Position numbers and translations under genes: made by a program. The notes beneath the pieces are model-generated. The model saw only the letters and a program-made list of their open reading frames with translations. It searched no databases and was not told the origin of the DNA. Below are positions 2,372 to 35,360 of a DNA stretch of 35,788 nucleotides, one piece after another (the stretch's first letter is position 1; the number at the start of each line of letters is the position of its first letter). Source of the DNA: Candidatus Campbellbacteria bacterium CG22_combo_CG10-13_8_21_14_all_36_13 (lineage in GTDB: Bacteria; Patescibacteriota; Minisyncoccia; Phycocordibacterales; PCTT01); NCBI GenBank assembly GCA_002771585.1, contig PCTT01000027.1, positions 1 through 35,788 on the forward strand. Direction: 5' to 3'.

Positions 2372-2745
2372 GTAAATATATTTTTTATCTTCTGCCAAAT
2401 ACCTTTTTTTTCGTTTACATTAATGTCCTCATCATTAGAAGTTTTTTCAACAACAACCATAACTCTCTCACCTTCTTTAGCAACATTAAACATATCGCGT
2501 ATCTCCATCTCTATCCCTTTTGGTGTAGCAAGTGATTTAAGTTTAGATTCAAGAAATTCTTTTCTATCCTGTATTTTATTAAACTCATTAGTTACAACCT
2601 CTAATGTTTCACTTGTGCTTTGTTCTTTTTCATAAAGATTAAGAACCGCCTTACCAGAAAAAAATATCATTATAATCAAAACAACCAAAGATGTCTTTGA
2701 GTATAAAAATTTTTCGTATGTTTTTCCACCCTTATCAAAAGACAT
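2362..2745 (-). CDS. FtsB/DivIC-like septum formation initiator (single N-terminal TM plus coiled coil)
   Basis: 127 aa with one TM (LVVLIIMIFFSG), then a coiled coil. The motif GIEMEIRDMFNVAKEGERVMVV is typical of the DivIC/FtsB family. The 3' end overlaps the tRNA 5' half by about 10 nt. Confidence 0.55.
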   Translation of the reverse strand: MSFDKGGKTYEKFLYSKTSLVVLIIMIFFSGKAVLNLYEKEQSTSETLEVVTNEFNKIQDRKEFLESKLKSLATPKGIEMEIRDMFNVAKEGERVMVVVEKTSNDEDINVNEKKGIWQKIKNIFTRD

Positions 2746-2883
2746 GATATAATATATTATATCGCATTAAAATCTTAAAAATATGTTTAACAAGAAAACA
2801 AGAAAATCCCTAGAAATGGTGTGGAAAGTAATAGTTGCTATCATAATATTAAGTATGATTCTTCTATATACACCTATTTTCCT

Positions 2884-4674
2884 CTAGTTTGAATCTCTCA
2901 TAACCTTCATAAAGACTTCCTGTGGAATATTTGCCTTGGCAAATTCTTGCATTTTCTTCTTACCCTTCTTTTGTTTCTCCCTAAGCTTCATCTTTCTTGT
3001 AATATCACCACCGTATAGATAATCAGTAACATCTTTTTTCATAGCAGATATAGTCTTTGATGACATTATTCTGCCTTGTGCCATTGCTTGTATTTTTGTT
3101 TTTGTTAATTGTTTTGGTAGAAGTGTAAATAATTTTTCAACAATTTTCTTTGCTTCTTCTTCAGCTCTTCTACGAGACACAACTCTAGAAAAAGCAGGTA
3201 TTACATCCTCCGCAACCAATACCTCAAGCAAAACCACATCAGCCAAAGACCACTCATCATTTATTTCATAGGATAGTGAAGCATACCCTGAAGAAACACG
3301 CTTTATATCATCAAAAAAATTCCTCATAAGCTCACGAAGGGGCATCAGTATTGTAAATTCTGTACGACCGTCACCAAAAAGATGCGTGTCGACGATAGAT
3401 CCTTCATGATCATAAAGTATCTGTATTAGAGAATCTATATACTCTGCTGGAGTAATAAGCCTTATAGAAGTCCAGCGCTCTCTTATACTAGATATTTCAC
3501 CATATGGTGGAAAAAGTGCTGGTGAATAAACAAGTTTTGTATTGTTTTTTTTGTCAGTTACCTCATACGTAATACTTGGGGTAGTAACAACTAAATCAAT
3601 ATTAAATTCCCTTCTTAATCTTTCTGTAATTATCTCTAGATGCAACATGCCAAGAAAACCACACCTAAAACCACGACCAAGCACACCACTAGACTCCTCC
3701 TCAAATGAAAGTGAACCATCAGAAAGCTTTAGTCTCTCCAATGACTGTCTTAATACCGTAAAATCATCCTGGCTCTCTGGGAAAACACTAGCCCATATAA
3801 CTGGTTTAGGGTCCTGATATCCTGGAAGAGCATCTGTATTTTTATTACTCAAAACAATAGTATCACCCACCCTTGCAATACCAGGCTCTTTTATACCAGT
3901 AACAATATATCCAATCTGGCCATTTGATAATAAATCAGTGGGGGTCTCCTCTGGCCTAAAAATACCCACTTCACTTGCAACGAATGATTTGCCAGCAATT
4001 TTAAATGAAAGGCTTGAGCCTTTTTTAACCTCACCCTCTACTATCCTTGTATAAACCACAACACCGCGGTGATTTGAATATTCAAAATCAAAAACAAGCG
4101 CCCTTAGATCTTCTTCTGGTTTTTGTTTTGGTGGCGGAACCTTATCTATAATAGAATCTATCAAAAGAGTAACTCCTTCTCCTGTTTTACCAGACGTACA
4201 AATGACATCATTTTTCTCACAACCCGTAACTTCTATTATTTCCTCTATAACATCATCAACCCTAGCTATAGGAGAATCTATCTTTGACAGAACTGGTATT
4301 ATCTTTAAACCAATTTTTTTTGCCATATCAAGCGTTGTGAATGTTTGGGCTTGAACCCCTTGTGTTGCATCAACAAGCAATATCGCACCCTCCACAGCCT
4401 TGAGCGCACGCGACACTTCATAAGAAAAATCTATATGGCCTGGCGTGTCAATAAGATTAAGTTTATATTTGATACCATCTTTCTGATAATCCATTGTAAC
4501 GGGCGCCATTTTTATTGTAATTCCCCTCTCTCGTTCAAGTTCCATCTTATCAAGAACCTGTGCTTTCATTTTTCTTTTTTCTATGGTGCCAGTAACCTCG
4601 AGCATTCTATCTGCTAGAGTAGATTTACCATGGTCAATATGTGCAATAATGCTAAAGTTTCTTATGTTGTTCAT
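2884..4674 (-). CDS. lepA: Translation elongation factor 4 (LepA)
   Basis: 596 aa. Has the G1 motif AHIDHGKST, DTPGH, and a conserved LepA C-terminal region (ISAMKKDVTDYLYGGDITRKMKL). Confidence 0.97.
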   Translation of the reverse strand: MNNIRNFSIIAHIDHGKSTLADRMLEVTGTIEKRKMKAQVLDKMELERERGITIKMAPVTMDYQKDGIKYKLNLIDTPGHIDFSYEVSRALKAVEGAILLVDATQGVQAQTFTTLDMAKKIGLKIIPVLSKIDSPIARVDDVIEEIIEVTGCEKNDVICTSGKTGEGVTLLIDSIIDKVPPPKQKPEEDLRALVFDFEYSNHRGVVVYTRIVEGEVKKGSSLSFKIAGKSFVASEVGIFRPEETPTDLLSNGQIGYIVTGIKEPGIARVGDTIVLSNKNTDALPGYQDPKPVIWASVFPESQDDFTVLRQSLERLKLSDGSLSFEEESSGVLGRGFRCGFLGMLHLEIITERLRREFNIDLVVTTPSITYEVTDKKNNTKLVYSPALFPPYGEISSIRERWTSIRLITPAEYIDSLIQILYDHEGSIVDTHLFGDGRTEFTILMPLRELMRNFFDDIKRVSSGYASLSYEINDEWSLADVVLLEVLVAEDVIPAFSRVVSRRRAEEEAKKIVEKLFTLLPKQLTKTKIQAMAQGRIMSSKTISAMKKDVTDYLYGGDITRKMKLREKQKKGKKKMQEFAKANIPQEVFMKVMRDSN

Positions 4675-4798
4675 AAAATAATCTCAATCTATATTGTAAT
4701 GAGTCTCGCCCCGTAGTGAACCGAGCTTGTCGAGGTTCTACTACCGGGGTGGTCAATATGGGCAATAATGCTAAAGTTTCTGATGTTGTTCATAAAAT
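4631..4798. repeat. 49-nt direct duplication of the lepA start region (4631-4679 and 4750-4798, 47/49 identical) flanking a 70-nt insert with a GC-rich hairpin
   Basis: Direct comparison of the two copies. Hairpin arms are 4709-4722 and 4734-4749. Confidence 0.9.
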
Positions 4799-4855
4799 TT
4801 TATTCTATTAAGCATTACAGAATCATACCAGAATTAAAATATCACACAAAGAAAA

Positions 4856-6538
4856 TTAGAGCTCGGACTGTTCTGGTAAAAATATTGCTGGTTTTGTATA
4901 TTTTTTCCTAAATGCGCCTATCACTTCTATAACTTCAGTATTCCTTAATAAGATTAATAACAAAACCCCAAAAACAATACCAAAGAGACCGGCAAAAAGA
5001 CCTTGTGAAAATATACCAATCACTGTCCTTATATCAAATAGATCGTCAAAAATGCCCAATGCTTTATATGTAGCAAAACCGACTATGATAGATGTATACA
5101 ATGATTGCCTTGCAGAAACCCAAAAACCATAAGAAAATTTGCCAAAATCCTTAAAGAAATATCTTGATATAAGTATCATATTTAATATTGTTCCTATAGA
5201 AAAAGATAGTGGCAAAAACAACATATTACTACCATAAATACCTTCTACCTTTAAGAGCGACTCTATAAAAAATAGTAACGGCTGTACAGTGGTATCAAAT
5301 GCTAAAAGCATCATGGCCAAAACTACCGTTGTAGAACCAGATATTACAGCAAAAATCAAAGGTTTCTTTGTATCACCTGTTGCATAATATCCTCTTACAA
5401 ATAAAAGTATTAGTGACTGTGCAAAAACAGAAATAGAAAATATTGCGACGGTTGCAGCAGTGAGTCTTGTGGCAGACCAAGTAAATTCACCGCTCCCTAG
5501 TATTGTCCTTACTATTTGAGCACGTAATACAATAAAAAGAGTTAAAACTGGCAAAGACCAAAATACTATATGTCTTGCCGCCGCCTCAATCTTTTCGATA
5601 AACTCATTTTTTTCACCTTTAACAAATAATTCAGAAAGCATTGGAAAAGCGGCAAGAGAATAGCTCACACCTATTATCCCGAGGGGAACTGATTGAAGGT
5701 TAAATGCTAAGTTAAATATTGTTATTGTTCCTTCTCTAAGTAAAGAAGCAAAGCCGAGCAAAAACAAAATTACAATACTTGTTATAGACAAGGTAAAAGA
5801 TCGTGGAATAGATGGTAATATAACATTTTTAACAGATTTCCAATCAATAGATGTTGTTATTTTGGGCAGCATTTTCTTTTCAGAAACAGCAAAGGACTGT
5901 ATGAACATATGCAAAAATGCACCGAATACAACCCCAACCCCGAGACCTAAAATACCCAACATCGGATACAATAGAGTAATTCCCATGATTATTCCAACAT
6001 TATAAAGAATAGGGGCCATTGCATACACAAAAAACCTTTTATACGCCTGCACAATACCAGCAAACAGACTGGATATGCCTAGCAAAAGCGGAGACAATAA
6101 AAACACTCTGGTGAGTAAGACAAGGTCAGAGAAAGACTCTAAACCAACAAACCCCGGGAAAAGTATTTTCAATATATACGGACTTACAAAAAAGGCTATA
6201 ATACAAACAGCTACTATAGATATGAGGAAAAAAGTAAATATAGAATCAATAAACTTTTTGGATTTTTCATAACCAATATTCATTTGCTGAATCAGAATTG
6301 GAACAATAACTGATATCGATACAATTGAACCGGCAATAATCAAAATCAAGTCTGGTAATCTAAAGGCGGCATAATACAGATCAAGAGTCTCTCCTGCCCC
6401 AAAAGAGTGTGCCAAAAGTCTATCTCTAACCAAACCAAGAATCTGAGAAATGAGCGTGAACAACGCCAAGACATAGGCGGCCTTATGCAAGCCGCCAGTC
6501 TCTTTGTTGATAAATGAAAATATTTTTCGAGCAATCAT
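4856..6538 (-). CDS. murJ: Lipid II flippase MurJ (MviN family)
   Basis: 560 aa polytopic membrane protein. The N-terminus (LALFTLISQILGLVRDRLLAHSFGAGETLDLYYAAFRLPD) is the characteristic MurJ signature. Confidence 0.9.
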   Translation of the reverse strand: MIARKIFSFINKETGGLHKAAYVLALFTLISQILGLVRDRLLAHSFGAGETLDLYYAAFRLPDLILIIAGSIVSISVIVPILIQQMNIGYEKSKKFIDSIFTFFLISIVAVCIIAFFVSPYILKILFPGFVGLESFSDLVLLTRVFLLSPLLLGISSLFAGIVQAYKRFFVYAMAPILYNVGIIMGITLLYPMLGILGLGVGVVFGAFLHMFIQSFAVSEKKMLPKITTSIDWKSVKNVILPSIPRSFTLSITSIVILFLLGFASLLREGTITIFNLAFNLQSVPLGIIGVSYSLAAFPMLSELFVKGEKNEFIEKIEAAARHIVFWSLPVLTLFIVLRAQIVRTILGSGEFTWSATRLTAATVAIFSISVFAQSLILLFVRGYYATGDTKKPLIFAVISGSTTVVLAMMLLAFDTTVQPLLFFIESLLKVEGIYGSNMLFLPLSFSIGTILNMILISRYFFKDFGKFSYGFWVSARQSLYTSIIVGFATYKALGIFDDLFDIRTVIGIFSQGLFAGLFGIVFGVLLLILLRNTEVIEVIGAFRKKYTKPAIFLPEQSEL

Positions 6539-9100: not shown

Positions 9101-10244
9101 GGTTTTGGTATCGGACAATCGCGATGTCATCGCTTCGCGCTGACGCGCGGACTAACGCAGATATAGACGCAGACCTACGCAGAAATCGAATATCAGTTTT
9201 CCGCGTTAGTCCGCGTTTAGTCCGCAAGATCAGCGCGCCAATGCGAAGCAGTGACGTTGAGGAAAGTCCGGACACACGCCCGTCGTACCTCACTGCGTTC
9301 GGTACTAAGTCAAAAGTCTATAAAGCCCATAATGTCAAAAGTCACAAACTTTCGACTTTATAGACATTCGACTTTGAACTAAAGTGCCGAGCTTAGCGAG
9401 GTGCGACGGACAGCATGGTGGTGCCCTACATTTTCACTTTGTGAAAATCGGGTCCGAACAATCTGTTTAAGGATTGTTTTAGGAGGTAATACCCATCGAC
9501 CAGTGCAGCGCACTGGAAATTCGAAATCCGAAATTCTAAATTCGAAACTTTTTAAGTTTTAATATTTTAAATATTAGGCTAAAACCACACGGGATTATTT
9601 TATATTAAAATAATCCCGTGTGGTTCGCCCGACAAAAATCTCGAAGGATTTTTGTTTAGGGACTTAAATATTGCCCGCCCGGACGAATGTCCCCCGCCAG
9701 AATCCAGCCCGAAAGATTCATTCTGGCGGGGACTCTGTCGGGCTGGATTCGGACAGGTTTCATATTTAGATATTCGTGCTTCGTGCTTCCAATGCGTTGC
9801 ATTGGTTAGAGGTGCGAGCAGAGACGCCCAAATCGAAAGAAGAGGGATTCCCTAGTGGAATAGTTCCATGGCAACATGGGTGCTAAAACAAAATGTTTTT
9901 AACATTTTGTTCGCACGAACATTTTGTTTACAAAATGTTCTAGTGAAACGGCAAAATCCTCACTTGTGTGCAAGACCGCGCCCCAGTGCAGCGCACTGGT
10001 GGAGAGTCGCTTGAGCATGTTGGTAACAACATGCCTAGATAAATGATTGTCGTCTGTCGTACCTCACTGCGTTCGATACGATAATTCTAAATTTAAAGTT
10101 TTGAATTTTGAATGAATTTTAAATGAATTAATTTAAAATTAAAACATTCGAAATTGAATGGAAATTTTAAATTAGAAATTTTAAATTCATCCGAGCTTAG
10201 CGAGGTGCGACAGATACAGAATCCGGCTTATAGGTACCAAAACC
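9101..10244 (+). ncRNA. rnpB: RNase P RNA (bacterial type A-like core) expanded to about 1144 nt by multiple insertions
   Basis: GAGGAAAGTCCGG at 9259-9271. ACAGAATCCGGCTTA at 10216-10230. P1 pairing GGTTTTGGTATC (9101-9112) with GGTACCAAAACC (10233-10244). GCTTGAG-CATGTTGGTAACAACATG-CCTAGATAAATGATTGTC (about 10009-10052) aligns with the E. coli M1 P15/P18/P2 region. Confidence 0.8.
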
Positions 10245-10276
10245 TTGTCCCGCATACTGCGGAGACAATTTATATG

Positions 10277-10304
10277 AAAAAACTCGCTTAATTGCGAGTT
10301 TTTT
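10277..10304. terminator. Bidirectional intrinsic terminator between rnpB (+) and the RNR gene (-)
   Basis: AAAAAACTCGC-ttaatt-GCGAGTTTTTT: stem flanked by an A-run and a T-run. Confidence 0.7.
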
Positions 10305-10356
10305 CATTGTTTTTAAACTTTATAGACTTTCGACTTTTTTGACTTTATAGATTAAT

Positions 10357-22485: not shown

Positions 22486-22520
22486 TAGTAATTCTTAATT
22501 CTTAATTCTTAATTCTTAAA
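22486..22520. repeat. Tandem heptamer repeat (TTCTTAA) x4-5
   Basis: Direct reading. Related ATTC(C/T)TAATTCATAATTC arrays lie at 27050-27106 and 29489-29526. Confidence 0.9.
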
Positions 22521-22621
22521 CCAATTATATCAACAAAAGCCGATTTATACCAAAAACTCGTCCATTCTGTTTCAACTTTATGGGCTTTTAACTTTGTACT
22601 TTATAGACTTTATGGACTTTA

Positions 22622-22677
22622 CCTGTCTGCCGCCTGCCTGCCCTGCCTACCGGCAGGCAGGCGGCAGGCGGGACAGG
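22622..22677. repeat. GC-rich 21-bp-stem hairpin inserted in a GACTTTAT repeat array, flanked by the direct repeat GGACTTTA
   Basis: CCTGTC+TGCCGCCTGCCTGCC / GGCAGGCAGGCGGCA+(GGCGG bulge)+GACAGG. Direct repeats at 22614-22621 and 22683-22690. Confidence 0.85.
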
Positions 22678-22719
22678 CATGTGGACTTTATGGACTACTT
22701 TTGCTATACTGTTTGTCAC

Positions 22720-24900: not shown

Positions 24901-26883
24901 ATGGTAGTAAATAAAAAAACCTCCTCCTTTTCTAGTTCAAATAATCAAAACCACAGAAGAAGGCGCAGACCTGTAATACAAACATATATGAGTGATTCTA
25001 TAAAAAAACCAGAATCTAGAGTTGATTCTTTCAAATCAACAGCGCCAACACAACAGATAAAAAAGGTTGGTTCTGTTTCTAGACGAGGTAATACAAAAAA
25101 CAAAACACACAGCAATTCATCCAAAAGAAAAACAAATACAAGAACTGTTCAAAAGCGAAACGGTGAGCAGGTTAATAAAAAAAGGGAAATACCGATTCAT
25201 CCAGCTGGTGACAATATAAGAATCATACCTCTCGGCGGTGTAGAGGAAATTGGTAAAAATATGTACATAATGGAGTACCAAGATGACATAATCGTAATGG
25301 ACTGTGGTTTTGCATTCAAGAGTGAGGAGACACCGGGAGTAGACTACATACTGCCAAACACCGAATACCTAGAGAAAAGAAAAGAAAAAATAAAAGGTGT
25401 AATAATTACACACGGACACCTAGACCACATAGGAGGCCTTCCCTATGTGATGCACAGAATTGGTAATCCTCCTGTTTACTCTAGAAATCTCACCACAATA
25501 ATGATACAGAAAAAGTATGAGGAATTTAAAGATCTGGAACCCCTAGACCTAAGGGTCGTCGAAAATGATAGCCGTATAAGTCTAGGAAAACTTAAAGTAA
25601 AATTCTTTGGTGTTACACACACAATACCAGATTCTATGGGTGTAATAATAGAAACCCCTTTTGGAAGCATAGTAAACCCAGGAGATTTTAAATTATCACA
25701 CGTAGACGGCAAACCAATTGATGAAGAGGAAGATGCTTACAAAGTATTTGATACTGAAAAAGTATTGTTCTTAATGAGCGACTCTACAAACGTAGAAAAC
25801 CCAGGATTTTCTACACCAGAACACGTTGTAAAAGAAGGTCTAGATAAAGTAATAAAAGAAACCAAAACACGACTAATTATTGGCACCTTCGCGTCTCAAA
25901 TGGAACGAATGATAGGTATTATAAATTCGATAGAAAAATACAACAAAAAACTTGCTGTGGAAGGAAGGAGTATGAAAATCAATATAGAGATAGCAAAACT
26001 GGCCGGTATACTTTCTATGAAACCAGACACACTAATTCCATCAGAAGACATAGAGAAATATCCACCAGACAGAGTTGTAGTACTTGCCACTGGCGCACAA
26101 GGTGAAGAATTTGCAGCTCTTATGCGAATGGCAAGCAAAAATCACAAGTATATAAAAATGAGTGAGAGAGATACGGTTTTACTTTCCTCGTCTGTAATAC
26201 CAGGAAACGAGAATTCTGTACAAAAACTAAAAGACAACATAGCACGCAACGGCGCAAAAATAATTCATTATAGAACTTCAGAAATATTCATACACGGAAG
26301 TGGTCATGGCAACAGAGAAGAAATCAAATGGCTACATAAAAAAATAAAACCAAAATTCTTTATGCCAATCCACGGAACACATTATATGCTACGAATGCAT
26401 GCACAATTGGCAGAAGAGCTGGGTATGCCAAAAGAAAACATCGTGGTGCCAGACAATGGAACCATAGTAGAAATTCAAGACGGCGGTAATAAGCTAGTAA
26501 GACTTGATCTCCAGGCTCCGTCAGACATAGTTGCTGTAGATGGTTTCTCTATTGGAAACATGCAAGATGTTGTTATAAGAGATAGACAGCTATTGTCTGA
26601 GGATGGAATATTCATCATAGTTGTTGCACTAAATACAAGAACTGGAAAACTAAGAAAATCTCCAGATATTATCTCTCGAGGTTTTGTTTATCTACGAGAA
26701 TCACAAAACTTATTACAAGAATCGAGGGTGTTGATAAAGAAAACAGTAGAAGATGCAACAAGATCAATGAATCCTGTCAACTTTGATATCATAAAAGCAG
26801 AAATTACTGACCAAGTGAGAAAATTCTTATTACAAAAAACAGACAAGAAGCCTGTCGTAATTCCTGTTATACTGGGGATATAA
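24901..26883 (+). CDS. rnj: Ribonuclease J (metallo-beta-lactamase/beta-CASP) with a ~100-aa basic low-complexity N-terminal extension
   Basis: 660 aa. IITHGHLDHIGG (HxHxDH), beta-CASP region, and the C-terminal domain typical of RNase J. Confidence 0.9.
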   Translation: MVVNKKTSSFSSSNNQNHRRRRRPVIQTYMSDSIKKPESRVDSFKSTAPTQQIKKVGSVSRRGNTKNKTHSNSSKRKTNTRTVQKRNGEQVNKKREIPIHPAGDNIRIIPLGGVEEIGKNMYIMEYQDDIIVMDCGFAFKSEETPGVDYILPNTEYLEKRKEKIKGVIITHGHLDHIGGLPYVMHRIGNPPVYSRNLTTIMIQKKYEEFKDLEPLDLRVVENDSRISLGKLKVKFFGVTHTIPDSMGVIIETPFGSIVNPGDFKLSHVDGKPIDEEEDAYKVFDTEKVLFLMSDSTNVENPGFSTPEHVVKEGLDKVIKETKTRLIIGTFASQMERMIGIINSIEKYNKKLAVEGRSMKINIEIAKLAGILSMKPDTLIPSEDIEKYPPDRVVVLATGAQGEEFAALMRMASKNHKYIKMSERDTVLLSSSVIPGNENSVQKLKDNIARNGAKIIHYRTSEIFIHGSGHGNREEIKWLHKKIKPKFFMPIHGTHYMLRMHAQLAEELGMPKENIVVPDNGTIVEIQDGGNKLVRLDLQAPSDIVAVDGFSIGNMQDVVIRDRQLLSEDGIFIIVVALNTRTGKLRKSPDIISRGFVYLRESQNLLQESRVLIKKTVEDATRSMNPVNFDIIKAEITDQVRKFLLQKTDKKPVVIPVILGI

Positions 26884-26917
26884 CTTAAGGTATAGGGTTT
26901 AGGGTATAGGACGCTAT

Positions 26918-27106
26918 GAATTTTCAATTTTCAAACAATTTCCAATGAAATAATTTTTAATGTAGTTTAAGATTTAGATATTTGTTCGCCGGCTGGCGAA
27001 TTTGATATTGTTTAGGGTTTCGTGCTTCGGATTTCGAATTTCGTTGATATTCCTAATTCATAATTCTAAACAAAATATTCTTAATTCTTAATTCATAATT
27101 CAGAAC
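26918..27106. repeat. Composite intergenic repeat, copy A: AATTTTC heptads, TTTAGATATT, GC palindrome TTCGCCGGCTGGCGAA, core TTTGATATTG..GTGCTTCGGATTTC, ATTCNTA heptads
   Basis: Collinear with copy B at 29372-29526 in the same orientation. Confidence 0.85.
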
Positions 27107-27107
27107 A

Positions 27108-29244: not shown

Positions 29245-29371
29245 ATATAGATATATTGTATGTTAAAAAGCATATTTTTCCATTACATCTGTGTGGATAA
29301 CGAGCCGAGATATGCTTTAGTTTCAAGGACTTAAGAGCTTAACAGTCTGTAGTCAGAAGTCAGTAGTATAC

Positions 29372-29526
29372 GAATTTTCAATTTACAATTTTCAATGTCC
29401 TAATTTTCAAACGTCGTTTTTGAATTTAGATATTCGAGTTTTGATATTGTTTCGGATTTAGTGCTTCGTATATCGGATTTCATTTATATTCTTAATTCCT
29501 AATTCATAATTCTTAATTCTGAAGCC
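29372..29526. repeat. Composite intergenic repeat, copy B (overlaps the last codons of gatB)
   Basis: Same module order as 26918-27106. Core at 29440-29481. Confidence 0.85.
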
Positions 29527-30925: not shown

Positions 30926-31041
30926 GGTTAATTTTTAATTTTGAATTTTTAATTTTAATTCAATTTTGAATTTTTTAATATTTTAAAATTTGTTCATTTT
31001 AAATTCATTCAAAATTTTAAATTTAAAATTCATACTTATTT
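30926..31041. repeat. AT-rich short-period repeat spacer (AATTTTA/AATTTTGA family)
   Basis: Direct reading. The same family fills the rnpB insertion at 10083-10190. Confidence 0.8.
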
Positions 31042-32013: not shown

Positions 32014-32120
32014 ATGATTTAAGTTAAAAGTCCATAATGTCCATAAGGTCTATAAAGTCTTGATCAAGCCTGATAATAATTTTGAAATTTCGATAGATAA
32101 ATCATTATGTTTATTATATC

Positions 32121-32771: not shown

Positions 32772-32835
32772 TTCGACTTTTTACTTTATAAACTTTCGAC
32801 TTTATGGACTTTATAGACTTTATGACTTTACGACT
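32772..32835. repeat. Array of GACTTTAT-family repeats (about 9-10 nt period) running into the secA stop region
   Basis: TTCGACTTTTTACTTTATAAACTTTCGACTTTATGGACTTTATAGACTTTATGACTTTACGACTC. The same family occurs at 9305-9378, 10317-10350, 22397-22430, 22574-22621, 32021-32060 and 32235-32275. Confidence 0.85.
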
Positions 32836-35360
32836 CTTGTCACTTTCCACACACCTTCTTCTACAAGCTCTTCTGCCTTCTTGTATTTCATAACTCTTGT
32901 TTCTTTTCCATTACTTATCTCCACTTTATCATTTCTACCAATCTTATCATCCCGATTTACAACAGTTTGAACTTTTCCATCACCAAAGCTTGTTTTTTCT
33001 GCAACTTCAGCTTCTTTTTTTATTGTCTGCAGACGATTTGATTCTTGCGCAAAAGAACCTTCTCCTATTCCTGAAATTACCTTAAATATTTGATCATCAA
33101 TAGATGCTTCCAGATCCTTAAACAACACAAGTCCTTCTCTTCTATATTCCACCAAAGGATCCCTCTGCCCAACAGAGCGCAAACTTACAGAAGATTTTAG
33201 ATAATCCATTGCCTCCAAGTGTTCCACCCAAAGCATATCCAAAGACTGAAGACTCACAGCACGAAATACTTCATAAAATTTATCTTCACCTAGTAGTTTT
33301 ATTTTTTCTTCAATTAAAGAAAGGTTTTCATCGCCAAGAATACTTTCCGCCATTTCTTTTAATTCGTCTCTATCACCCATCAATATACTCCTTCTCTTTG
33401 TATATATCGTGCGTCTTTGATGATTCATCACATCATCAAAATCCAAAACGTGTTTTCTTCTATCAAAGTTTAAGCCCTCTATTTTTTCTTGCGCAGACTC
33501 TAGTGACCTTGTTATAAGTTTATTTTGTATTGGTTGATCTTCTGGTATACCAAATCTACCCATCATACTTTTTACAGAATCCCCTGAAAATACTCTCATC
33601 AAATCATCTTCAAGAGAAACAAAAAACTGAGTCTCGCCAGGATCCCCTTGTCTTCCAGATCGTCCTCTTAGCTGATTATCAATTCTTCTTGCCTCATGTC
33701 GCTCTGTTCCTATTACAAAAAGCCCACCAGCATCAATCACCTTTTGTTTTGCTATAGCATCATTGTCTTCACCACCAAGCTTTATATCAACACCTCTTCC
33801 AGCCATGTTTGTAGCAATAGTTACAGCACCAACTTCTCCAGCACGAGCGATGATACTTGCCTCGTTTTCATGGTTTTTTGCGTTAAGAATATTATGTTTT
33901 ACACCCTCTTTGTCCAAAAAATCAGACAAAAGCTCATTTTTTTCTATTGAAACAGTACCAATTAGAACTGGCTGTCCTGCTTCATTTAATTCTTTTACTT
34001 TCTTTGCCAGAGCTCTAAATTTGCCAGACTCTGTTTGAAAAATTAAATCGTCCCTATCAATACGAGCAATTGGCTTATTTGTAGGAACTGCAATTGTGAT
34101 TAATCCATACACGCGATAAAACTCCTCCTGTGATGTCATTGCTGTACCCGTCATTCCTGCGAGTTTTTTATACATTCTGAAATAGTTTTGATAAGTAATT
34201 GAAGCAAATGTGCGAGATTCTTTTTCGAGCTTCACTCCTTCTTTTGCCTCTATTGCTTGATGAAGACCTTCTGAATATCTTCGTCCGTTCAATATCCTTC
34301 CGGTAAACTCATCCACAATCATCACCTTTCCATCTCTCACAACATATTCTTTTTCTTTTTTGTATAAAGCTTTTGCCTTTACAGCAAGCTCGAGGTGGTG
34401 GACATATCTAATTCCACCATCTGTATAAATATTTTCTATTCCAAGTTTTTTCTCTGCTTTTTCTATTCCTGAATCAGTAAGAGTGAGTGCCTTTGCTTTT
34501 TCATCTACCTCATAATCTTCTCCTTCTACAAGAATGTTTGCAATAGATGCAAATGTGCCATAAAGACTCTCAGACTCCGATGTGGGCGATGAAATAATAA
34601 GCGGTGTTCGCGCTTCGTCGATCAAAATTGAGTCTATCTCATCGATTATTGCAAAGTTTAAATCTCTTTGCCTCAAATCTTCTTCTTTATATGAAATATT
34701 GTCGCGCAAGTAGTCAAAACCAAACTCAGAGTTAGTTCCATAAGTAATATCTGCTGCATATGATTCTCTTCTTGAACATGGCTTCAAAAACTCATGCACA
34801 ACCTTGAAATACCCTTGCTCATCCCTTTCAACATCTTTTTCTTCTCCTTCTTTTGCAAAAGTCTTATCATACAAAAAAGAATCTTGTGAATTTATTACAC
34901 CAACAGAAAGACCAAGAAAGGCATAAATTTCACCCATCCATACAGCATCCCTTCGTGCCAAATAATCATTCACCGTGACAACATGCACACCCTTGCCCGA
35001 GAGAGCATTCAAGTATACGGGAAGTGTGGCAACCAAAGTCTTTCCCTCACCTGTTCTCATCTCAGAAATATTCCCATCATGCATCACAAGACCACCGATC
35101 ATTTGCACATCATAGTGTCTTTGTTTAAGTGTTCGCTTTGATGCCTCTCTCACGACAGCAAACGCCTCTGTTGATATGTCATCAAGTGTTTCTCCGGCCT
35201 CTAATCTTGCCTTAAATGCCAGTGTTTTGTTTCGAAGCTCTTCGTCAGTAAGGGCAGAGATTTCAACCTCAAAATCATTTATGACAGGAATAAGCGCCTC
35301 ATATTTAGCGAGGGCTTTTTTGTTTTGATCTCCAAATAAGTTACTAAATTTAAAAGCCAT
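32820..35360 (-). CDS. secA: Preprotein translocase ATPase SecA
   Basis: 846 aa. MRTGEGKTLVATLP Walker A, DEIDSILIDEARTPLIIS, TNMAGRGVDIKLGG. The C-terminus lacks the usual cysteine-rich zinc tail. Confidence 0.97.
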   Translation of the reverse strand: MAFKFSNLFGDQNKKALAKYEALIPVINDFEVEISALTDEELRNKTLAFKARLEAGETLDDISTEAFAVVREASKRTLKQRHYDVQMIGGLVMHDGNISEMRTGEGKTLVATLPVYLNALSGKGVHVVTVNDYLARRDAVWMGEIYAFLGLSVGVINSQDSFLYDKTFAKEGEEKDVERDEQGYFKVVHEFLKPCSRRESYAADITYGTNSEFGFDYLRDNISYKEEDLRQRDLNFAIIDEIDSILIDEARTPLIISSPTSESESLYGTFASIANILVEGEDYEVDEKAKALTLTDSGIEKAEKKLGIENIYTDGGIRYVHHLELAVKAKALYKKEKEYVVRDGKVMIVDEFTGRILNGRRYSEGLHQAIEAKEGVKLEKESRTFASITYQNYFRMYKKLAGMTGTAMTSQEEFYRVYGLITIAVPTNKPIARIDRDDLIFQTESGKFRALAKKVKELNEAGQPVLIGTVSIEKNELLSDFLDKEGVKHNILNAKNHENEASIIARAGEVGAVTIATNMAGRGVDIKLGGEDNDAIAKQKVIDAGGLFVIGTERHEARRIDNQLRGRSGRQGDPGETQFFVSLEDDLMRVFSGDSVKSMMGRFGIPEDQPIQNKLITRSLESAQEKIEGLNFDRRKHVLDFDDVMNHQRRTIYTKRRSILMGDRDELKEMAESILGDENLSLIEEKIKLLGEDKFYEVFRAVSLQSLDMLWVEHLEAMDYLKSSVSLRSVGQRDPLVEYRREGLVLFKDLEASIDDQIFKVISGIGEGSFAQESNRLQTIKKEAEVAEKTSFGDGKVQTVVNRDDKIGRNDKVEISNGKETRVMKYKKAEELVEEGVWKVTRVVKS

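Follow-up and report, generated by a model that had tools for sequence, protein, structure and literature searches.

A 21-bp stem common to hairpin insertions in the RNase P RNA and ribosomal RNA genes of Patescibacteria

Introduction

Bacterial ribosomal RNA (rRNA) genes can carry intervening sequences (IVSs) that RNase III removes from the transcript without religation. They occupy 23S helices 25 and 45 in Salmonella, Yersinia, Campylobacter and Leptospira, among others, and are rarer in 16S rRNA. Mini-III (MrnC) cleaves double-stranded RNA (dsRNA) in a sequence-specific manner at ACC^U during 23S maturation in Bacillus, its natural site being the 23S terminal stem. In the gene encoding RNase P RNA (rnpB), Vioque reportedly found in 1997 that STRR repeats lie within helix P12 in heterocystous cyanobacteria. 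Here we describe a hairpin insertion, called module A, which is present twice in the rnpB gene of a Candidatus Campbellbacteria genome (assembly GCA_002771585.1) and whose basal stem recurs in 16S, 23S and rnpB insertions of other Patescibacteria. The gene lies on contig PCTT01000027.1, positions 1 to 35,788 of which were analysed and are referred to as the window.

In the Candidate Phyla Radiation (CPR), rRNA genes are rich in insertions, including short uncharacterised ones, and Tsurumaki et al. (2024) suspected IVSs among the short insertions without open reading frames (ORFs), including those at h25/h45 (PMC11270868). According to a review, metatranscriptomics supports self-splicing for those CPR 16S rRNA insertions that are large (>500 bp) and bear an intron or ORF; the short ones are not addressed there (PMC9698310). 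CPR RNase P RNAs are divergent, have extended helices, score below Rfam thresholds and need manual refolding (Lui et al., 2021, PMC8172020). In the literature we found no description of a stem shared by 16S, 23S and rnpB insertions, of an IVS-like insert in bacterial rnpB, or of modules shuffled among rnpB sites.

Results

Two copies of module A in one rnpB gene

The initial annotation had reported a helix-forming insertion present twice inside rnpB, with both arms repeated. The 5' arm GTCGTACCTCACTGCGTTCG (20 nt) is found at 9282-9301 and 10056-10075, and the 3' arm CCGAGCTTAGCGAGGTGCGAC (21 nt) at 9387-9407 and 10191-10211. Each occurs exactly twice in the window, which contains no further arm match with up to 3 mismatches (0 expected from 100 shuffles). 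Copy 1, delimited by the arm matches and the fold, spans 9280-9409 (+) and consists of a 21-nt 5' arm (9282-9302, with ACCU at 9287-9290), an 84-nt payload (9303-9386) forming an imperfect hairpin of AAGTC/GACTTT repeats of about 8 nt, and a 21-nt 3' arm (9387-9407, with AGGU at 9399-9402). Copy 2, on the same strand at 10053-10214, has its arms at 10056-10076 (ACCU 10061-10064) and 10191-10211 (AGGU 10203-10206) and has a homologue at the same site in a relative, L002. Its payload of 114 nt (10077-10190) has 14% G+C and is built of AATTTTA/TGAATTTTAAA tandem repeats; the payloads of the two copies are indeed different, as had been stated.

With G.U counted, the arms pair at 19/21 positions in copy 1 and at 18/21 in copy 2. 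The stem of about 23 bp proposed earlier is made up of these 21 positions and closing pairs supplied by the host, which are CC/GG in copy 1 (9280-9281 with 9408-9409) and TCT/AGA in copy 2 (10053-10055 with 10212-10214); the difference between these closing pairs is compensatory (C-G to U-A). Folding, which had been suggested as a check, gave long hairpins for both segments (-60.5 kcal/mol, z -9.8 for 9277-9412; -57.4 kcal/mol, z -8.65 for 10051-10216), and both copies remain local hairpins in the fold of the full 1,144-nt RNA. The placement beside the two P4 strands was correct and can be refined. Copy 1 follows the 5' strand of P5, just past the P4 5' strand, at a post-P5 (P5.1-like) site where it takes the place of a 13-nt hairpin of relatives (CTAAC-TTCG-TTAG in L004). 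The P19 position, flanked by the P2 3' strand (10045-10051) and the P4 3' strand, holds copy 2.

Four contigs from the same population (L008-L011) break off inside rnpB; the repeats therefore fragment short-read assembly, and the region is hard to assemble. This difficulty speaks for the trivial reading that module A is an RNase P helix duplicated internally in this lineage alone, or a product of misassembly, without wider significance. Two independent assemblies from different samples (L006 and L007), on the other hand, equal the window at 1161/1161 positions, which rules out an artefact of assembly, and three shorter contigs agree. The same stem is moreover found in 16S, 23S and rnpB of other lineages, in independent samples and assemblies, and we consider the trivial reading hardly credible.

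The same stem in 16S, 23S and rnpB of other genomes

Scanning metagenomes with the 3' arm, two positions of which were left free, gave 43 loci. Of these, 24 have a partner arm, itself not constrained by the search, 54-140 nt upstream, with pairing at 18-19 of 21 positions; the remaining loci pair at 12-15 positions and are unrelated. When genomes were scanned with the 5' arm, the canonical 3' arm emerged in seven contigs from metagenome-assembled genomes (MAGs), whose labels are Parcubacteria, Microgenomates, Saccharibacteria or Patescibacteria, plus one 'Gammaproteobacteria' contig (L058). The 16S gene of L058 shares only 71% identity with that of E. coli and 74-79% with CPR 16S genes, and this contig is probably mis-binned. 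A relaxed two-arm scan of all the DNA examined gave 60 matches, against 0 in reversed sequence. The possibility raised earlier that no other genomic copies exist is thereby removed: the arm search found copies in rRNA and rnpB genes of many Patescibacteria.

Rfam confirmed 16S rRNA, 23S rRNA and RNase P RNA as the hosts, and the rRNA sites were placed by mapping onto the E. coli operon (E. coli numbering). Within 16S rRNA module A occupies V2, ~593-596 and, in at least five lineages, helix 6. It is also present in the 16S 5' leader (L020, L062) and 17 nt beyond the 16S 3' end (L069). The 23S sites are helix 25, ~650-665, helix 45, ~1354-1373 and helix 63. The rnpB sites are post-P5, P9 (a diverged copy, L022), P15-17 (L040/L065, L051, L022) and P19. 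L020 carries identical copies at 1002-1150 and 1282-1430, one in the 16S leader and one in helix 6 (also L046, L056). Module A is always on a peripheral host helix or junction. This lets it fold locally without disturbing the catalytic core.

All 24 non-redundant copies are oriented in the sense of the host RNA, and no paired copy was found outside 16S, 23S, rnpB or an rRNA leader or trailer among the loci retrieved by the two arm patterns, to which the host census applies. Module A is part of the host transcript, in sense orientation only. These observations bear on the idea that it is a mobile hairpin element acting at the DNA level (of the MITE, REP or organellar type), with the arms as terminal inverted repeats and the RNA traits incidental. 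The imperfect inverted termini and variable interior would suit such an element, as would the patchy distribution with several copies per gene or operon, and hairpin-forming repetitive elements that reportedly invade organelle genomes offer a precedent (PMC2800124). The orientation bias might also partly reflect replication direction, if rRNA operons are co-oriented. However, target sites are not duplicated: the flanks (for example CC...GG, TCT...AGA and CTG...TGG) complement each other and are not direct repeats. Repeat-rich intergenic DNA is plentiful, yet no paired copy was retrieved from it. The arm variants keep G.U in the RNA sense, which would be A.C mismatches on the opposite strand, no transposase is associated in any flank examined, and viral contigs yielded nothing real. 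We consider this explanation unlikely. The earlier phrase 'insertion-prone hairpin element' fits the distribution; a DNA transposon, which it might bring to mind, is not favoured, since duplications are missing, all 24 copies point the same way and none of those retrieved lies outside a stable-RNA transcript.

Several candidates were rejected. A phage-borne element was dropped after two viral scans, which gave 0 matches and 1 chance match in a GC-rich coding region without a partner arm. The GC-rich singleton arm matches lie within long ORFs and lack a partner arm, and the matches in non-CPR genomes are due to chance. A GGTCCGAC group flanked by TAACGCCTCGAACAGCGG and TGCTTCGACTGGTTA, also lacking a partner arm, belongs to an unrelated marine-sediment element. 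This element, TAACGCCTCGAACAGCGG-CCGAGCGTAGCGAGGTCCGAC-TGCTTCGACTGGTTA, has the 21-mer by chance and was seen in at least 11 marine-sediment contigs (L015, L018, L026, L027, L029, L031, L034, L037, L043, L044 and L053). The copy in L062 was at one point taken for an rnpB P12 insertion; its site is the 16S leader. A bulge-helix-bulge intron and an integron attC site were both dismissed by eye, the former because the helix is continuous with 1x1 mismatches and the latter because there are no R'/R'' core boxes at the helix base. No intron family matches the rnpB region at E<=10, and neither the group I nor the group II intron model fits it. Introns are present in some rRNA loci, at coordinates other than those of module A. 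In L025 the 16S gene (2474-4895) extends over 2.4 kb and contains an Rfam tRNA match (3876-3955, 51.5 bits), and a group II intron domain match lies just downstream of it (5206-5318). A lone module A 5' arm, with no partner within 420 nt, occurs in L073 (150-170) in a 32-nt spacer between two tRNA genes upstream of 23S.

Anatomy and conservation of the stem

Stem statistics were taken from the 24 non-redundant copies. The basal duplex has 21 bp, with 5' GUCGYRCCUCAYUGNRUUYGG paired to CCGAGCNUAGCGAGGUGCGAC 3', plus 2-4 host pairs, most of the 21 positions being paired in all copies (24/24). An A.C mismatch stands at pair 11 in 23/24 copies, and there are wobbles at pair 17 (U.G, 24/24) and pair 14 (G.U, 22/24). 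Single-strand changes switch pairs 5, 6, 12 and 19 between Watson-Crick and wobble, and the variants of the 5' arm are transitions that preserve the pair or a wobble. Pair 15 is variable but genome-specific, with C.U in the two copies of the window, C.A in the two of L016 and G.G in the two of L020. The centre ACCUC/GAGGU is invariant: all 24 copies are paired at pairs 7-10 and carry AGGU in the 3' arm, and the 5' arm reads ACCU in 17/24, GCCU in 6/24 and AUCU in 1/24. Inside the stem, most copies go on as 5'-YACG...CG(C)-3'.

Covariation is free in the four host pairs beyond the stem, each of which takes up to six pair types, whereas the module pairs are fixed in sequence; the host flank positions are 79-100% paired. 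In total 89.3% of cells are paired, compared to 28-44% when the partner is slid, and the covariation of 0.239 compares with 0.132 in shuffles, none of 500 of which reached 0.239.

Sequence conservation that exceeds the needs of pairing, non-Watson-Crick positions included, is what one would expect if module A were a retained expansion segment, whose duplex docks a lineage-specific RNA-binding protein or makes an RNA-RNA contact and is not cleaved. The P5.1-like, P19, h63 and h6 sites bear permanent extra helices in other lineages, which counts for such a role, and so does the maintained complementarity of the payload hairpins. CPR RNase P RNAs have also been described with 'large extensions of helices' (PMC8172020). 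Against this, the copies in the 16S leader and past the 16S 3' end lie in regions removed from the mature rRNA, so that a general role in the mature particle is impossible. The length and sequence of the payload are unconstrained. Presence and absence flip between relatives whose B12-dependent ribonucleotide reductases (RNRs) are 87-94% identical, which would be unusual for a docking site. We regard a retained expansion segment as a possible explanation, though not a likely one.

Payloads and intergenic repeats

The payloads, of 54-140 nt and 7-55% G+C, are hypervariable imperfect hairpins of 7-11-nt tandem repeats, and the repeat family differs by genome (AATTTCT, GACTTTAT, CGCGGAA and others). 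The GACTTTAT-type repeats of copy 1 had been linked to intergenic DNA, and they do recur in the spacers at 10317-10351, 22598-22621 and 32775-32847. The payload of copy 2 is related to the spacer at 30958-31030. Altogether GACTTTAT, AATTTTA and GAAATTC repeats are common to payloads and the spacers at 10317-10351, 22598-22621, 26889-27107, 30928-31030 and 32775-32847. One short repeat family thus occupies both an rnpB helix and intergenic DNA, as in the STRR case, and this applies to the payload only. The spacers of the window are dense with 7-9-nt tandem repeats (GACTTTAT, TAATTCT, AATTTTC, GGTATAG, TTCGTGC) and small GC hairpins; such repeat-dense spacers lie at 10317-10351, 22489-22679, 26889-27107, 29369-29520, 30928-31030, 32027-32059 and 32775-32847. 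Similar repeat families were seen in payloads of distant CPR genomes (L025, L076, L016 and L028).

Copies within a genome resemble each other in the arms more than copies from different genomes (0-2/42 nt versus a mean of 4.1 nt). The post-P5 and P19 copies of the window differ at 1/42 arm nucleotides and have unrelated payloads. The copies at two 23S sites of L016 differ at 2 arm nucleotides, a compensatory U-A to C-G change at pair 2, and their payloads are 99% identical. The 16S leader and h6 copies of L020 have no arm differences and identical payloads. By these comparisons, the modules within one genome are copies of each other.

Gain, loss and swapping of inserts among relatives

The initial annotation had allowed that the arms might be ordinary RNase P helices of relatives. 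This is not what the relatives have. L004 and L005 (RNR 87% and 77% identical to that of the window) have an 11-13-nt hairpin at the post-P5 site and no helix at P19. L002 (RNR 89%) has a small unrelated hairpin at post-P5 and a homologous module A at P19. L012 and L001 (RNR 94%) have copy 1 at post-P5 and a second copy of the P3 hairpin at P19. The window sequence (RNR 100%) combines copy 1 and copy 2. An ordinary P19 helix was also ruled out, because L004 and L005 have no helix at that junction and L012 has a different module there. The arms of module A are accordingly insertions, not conserved RNase P helices.

The P19 module of L002 has 4 arm differences from the window, two of which improve pairing, and a payload of 54 nt that can be aligned to copy 2 at both ends. 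The post-P5 module of L012 and L001 has a payload 99% identical to that of copy 1 and a U.G to U-A change in the 3' arm. From the occupancy across these genomes, the P19 copy is the older and the post-P5 copy the younger, with modules replaced site by site. Over short evolutionary timescales module A is gained and lost, and it is copied from one permissive site to another within a gene or operon.

Other modules behave likewise. The initial annotation had missed that the window rnpB is a mosaic of about seven expansions, of which others are also duplicated between sites in relatives. Module C (9122-9257, +) is an expanded GC-rich P3 hairpin with ACGCAGA / TCCGCGTTTAG repeats, and it is this module that has a second copy at the P19 site in L012 and L001 (L012 minus strand, ~3232-3102). 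Module B (9500-9805, +), at the P9 site, ends in two 17-nt palindromic hairpins, CCAGTGCAGCGCACTGG (9500-9516) and CCAATGCGTTGCATTGG (9789-9805), which are able to pair with each other. In the window it occurs once, together with a solo CCAGTGCAGCGCACTGG hairpin at the P15-17 site (9983-9999, +); L012 has it twice, at P9 and, in full, at P15-17 (minus strand, 3972-3778 and 3600-3289). A payload block with a perfect 20-bp palindrome (9583-9625) belongs to the P9 module in the window and to the P15-17 module in L012. Among the DNA examined, modules B and C were found only in the window's own lineage. An insertion in P8 (9424-9484, +) has a similar counterpart in the rnpB of L022.

In L014 (RNR 79%, minus strand) rnpB is ~620 nt long and lies between RNR and the next gene. 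An unrelated module of ~125 nt (CCAATTTTACCTGCCGCAGGCAG...GGGCAAGATTGG) is found at post-P5 and P19, with a diverged version at P15-17, and P3 too is made by its first hairpin. This is a different element with the same copying behaviour. Different modules thus reuse the same five permissive rnpB sites, and shuffling is general in the clade.

The rnpB gene and its surroundings

The host gene was correctly recognised as rnpB. It has a bacterial type A core and extends over 1,144 nt (9101-10244, +), about 3.4-fold expanded, as judged from P1, P2 and P4 by eye and from a core alignment to L004. P1 (9101-9112/10233-10244) and P2 (9114-9120/10045-10051), both on the plus strand, were read off the sequence. 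The P4 5' strand, GAGGAAAGTCCGG (9259-9271, +), contains the universal RNase P motif and was aligned to the RF00010 consensus through L004; the P4 3' strand, ACAGAATCCGGCTTA (10216-10230, +), was read off the sequence and aligned in the same way. The type A hallmark is present in the P4 strands (GAGGAAAGUCCGG ... ACAGAAYCCGGCUUA) and in the closure of the molecule by P1 and P2. The core is 81.4% identical to L004 rnpB over 322 alignment columns. The rnpB genes of L004 and L005 are 339 and 337 nt long and score 124.9 and 119.8 bits, respectively, against RF00010. About 800 nt beyond the core are accounted for by the insertions, at P3, after P5, in P8, P9, P12-14 and P15-17, and at the P19 position.

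Rfam in gathering mode (100 bits) found no RNase P match in the window, the rnpB gene falling below threshold because of its inserts. In permissive mode (E<=10) it gave a partial RF00010 match of 32.7 bits, confined to 9911-10046, and microRNA noise over the hairpins; no curated Rfam family therefore covers module A.

The genes flanking rnpB encode RNR, a TPR protein, MurJ (murJ) and LepA (lepA). By its RNR the organism belongs to Patescibacteria, close to Paceibacteria. The order RNR - rnpB - TPR - murJ - lepA is kept in most relatives examined, in agreement with the identification of rnpB, and the rnpB-bearing spacer varies from ~530 to 1,490 nt among them. Between the convergent rnpB and RNR genes lies an intrinsic terminator hairpin (10274-10307), a perfect 14-bp inverted repeat with flanking A and T runs, which probably acts as a bidirectional terminator. 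The window also encodes RNase J (24901-26883; beta-CASP and RNase_J_C domains), from which the RNase set of the organism is Bacillus-like.

Discussion

We read copies 1 and 2 as members of one hairpin-insertion family of Patescibacteria stable-RNA genes that would work, by analogy, like an IVS with a basal duplex cut by a dsRNA-specific ribonuclease, and we rate the chances of this reading as about even. It is supported by three features: 23S h25 and h45 are classic RNase III IVS sites, the duplex measures about two helical turns, and its centre matches the ACC^U preference of Mini-III. As in an IVS, the tip of a variable helix at the periphery is lengthened or replaced by module A (h6 and V2 in 16S; h25, h45 and h63 in 23S; post-P5, P9, P15-17 and P19 in rnpB). 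The basal duplex reaches the length of ~20 bp or more (the 21-bp stem plus 2-4 host pairs), and occupancy is sporadic, L004, L005, L002, L012 and the window differing by site. Mini-III prefers ACC^U, and its best substrates share GACCUCG (PMC4357697; PMC5141509). ACCU/AGGU in perfect dsRNA is present in module A, in part through ascertainment, as one arm was fixed per search.

On this IVS-like reading, the basal duplex would be the recognition and cleavage site of an RNase III-family double-strand endonuclease, with the ACCUC/GAGGU centre as the match to the preference of Mini-III. Both pre-rRNA and pre-RNase P RNA would lose the payload on cleavage. If the cut fell at ACC^U/AGG^U, the host would retain 8 nt from the 5' arm and 6 nt from the 3' arm, a stub of ~6-8 bp, and the RNase P RNA would then be in three pieces joined by P1, P2, P4 and P5. 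Payloads might turn over through repeat slippage, and new copies might arise from ectopic copying between helix tips.

Several points weigh against the IVS-like reading. Stem cleavage is argued by analogy with known systems. Seven of the 24 copies have GCCU or AUCU, which are cut less well by Mini-III enzymes (PMC5141509). The 0.5 Mb examined, only a fragment of any one genome, yielded no gene for RNase III or Mini-III. We found no literature linking Mini-III to Patescibacteria and no precedent in the literature for a naturally fragmented bacterial RNase P RNA. The complementarity kept by long payload hairpins would not be required if these were merely discarded, and the rRNA copies of module A come from genomes other than that of the window organism. 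The invariance of the arms is partly a matter of ascertainment, because each scan fixed one arm; the independent evidence of conservation is the free arm in each scan.

A bolder version would make module A a new protein-dependent intervening element. Its stem would be a restriction-site-like ACC^U/AGG^U signal at which a Mini-III-type dsRNA ribonuclease excises the payload from pre-16S, pre-23S and pre-RNase P RNA, the ribozyme being left split or religated across the 2-nt overhangs, and identical sticky ends or DNA arms would let the element and its cargo hop. Such hopping between helix tips would explain the shuffling of modules among the window, L012, L014, L016 and L020. We consider this version unlikely.

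The insertions of three essential RNAs are tied to one conserved signal, which implies a common maturation enzyme, and our data suggest that a single shared signal serves these ultra-small bacteria in dealing with insertions in every one of their essential structural RNAs. A cut stem would make this RNase P ribozyme the first in bacteria to be naturally fragmented. The inserts also explain why rnpB can seem to be 'missing' in CPR genomes, the 1.1-kb gene scoring 33 bits and its 339-nt orthologue 125 bits. The 21-bp signature is a simple mask for inserts in rnpB and rRNA genes, which should improve annotation, completeness checks, primer design and phylogeny. The close relatives form a natural time series of expansion-segment gain, from 339 nt through ~590-620 nt to 1,144 nt, with modules swapped among five sites.

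Comparison with known systems

The window rnpB is like the CPR RNase P RNAs of PMC8172020 in its extended helices and its score below the Rfam threshold. That work contains no conserved insertion module, no duplication of modules between helices and no sharing with rRNA, whereas the 1,144 nt found here result from about seven inserts. The transposed tRNA and rRNA introns of archaea (bulge-helix-bulge; PMC3978253) and the organellar hairpin elements (PMC2800124) are like module A in being small and protein-dependent or passive, in having a basal structural motif and in taking new positions in structural RNA genes. Module A differs from the former in its bacterial hosts and in having no bulge-helix-bulge, with only 1x1 mismatches in a continuous 21-bp helix, and from the latter in its orientation and host restriction. 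With Mini-III substrates it shares the ACCUC/GAGGU centre, which fits both ACC^U and the GACCUCG core; it is a putative substrate only, and it is found in internal inserts and not in the 23S terminal stem.

Like the STRR arrays, the payloads place genome-wide tandem repeats of ~7 nt in a peripheral rnpB helix with function kept, and here these repeats are also intergenic. The STRR arrays are said to have no conserved basal stem, to be confined to P12 and not to be shared with rRNA genes, in which they would differ from module A.

Compared with rRNA IVSs, module A is set apart by its location in rnpB, for which we found no precedent in the literature, and by the use of one conserved stem across 16S, 23S, leaders and trailers and RNase P RNA in a radiation of phylum level. 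Its conserved mismatch and wobble positions and its payload hairpins of tandem repeats are further differences, and IVS-type cleavage is only putative here. Like those IVSs, it is a hairpin extension in place of the tip of a peripheral helix, it has a long basal duplex of about two helical turns, it is sporadic among close relatives, and it uses the same 23S helices 25 and 45.

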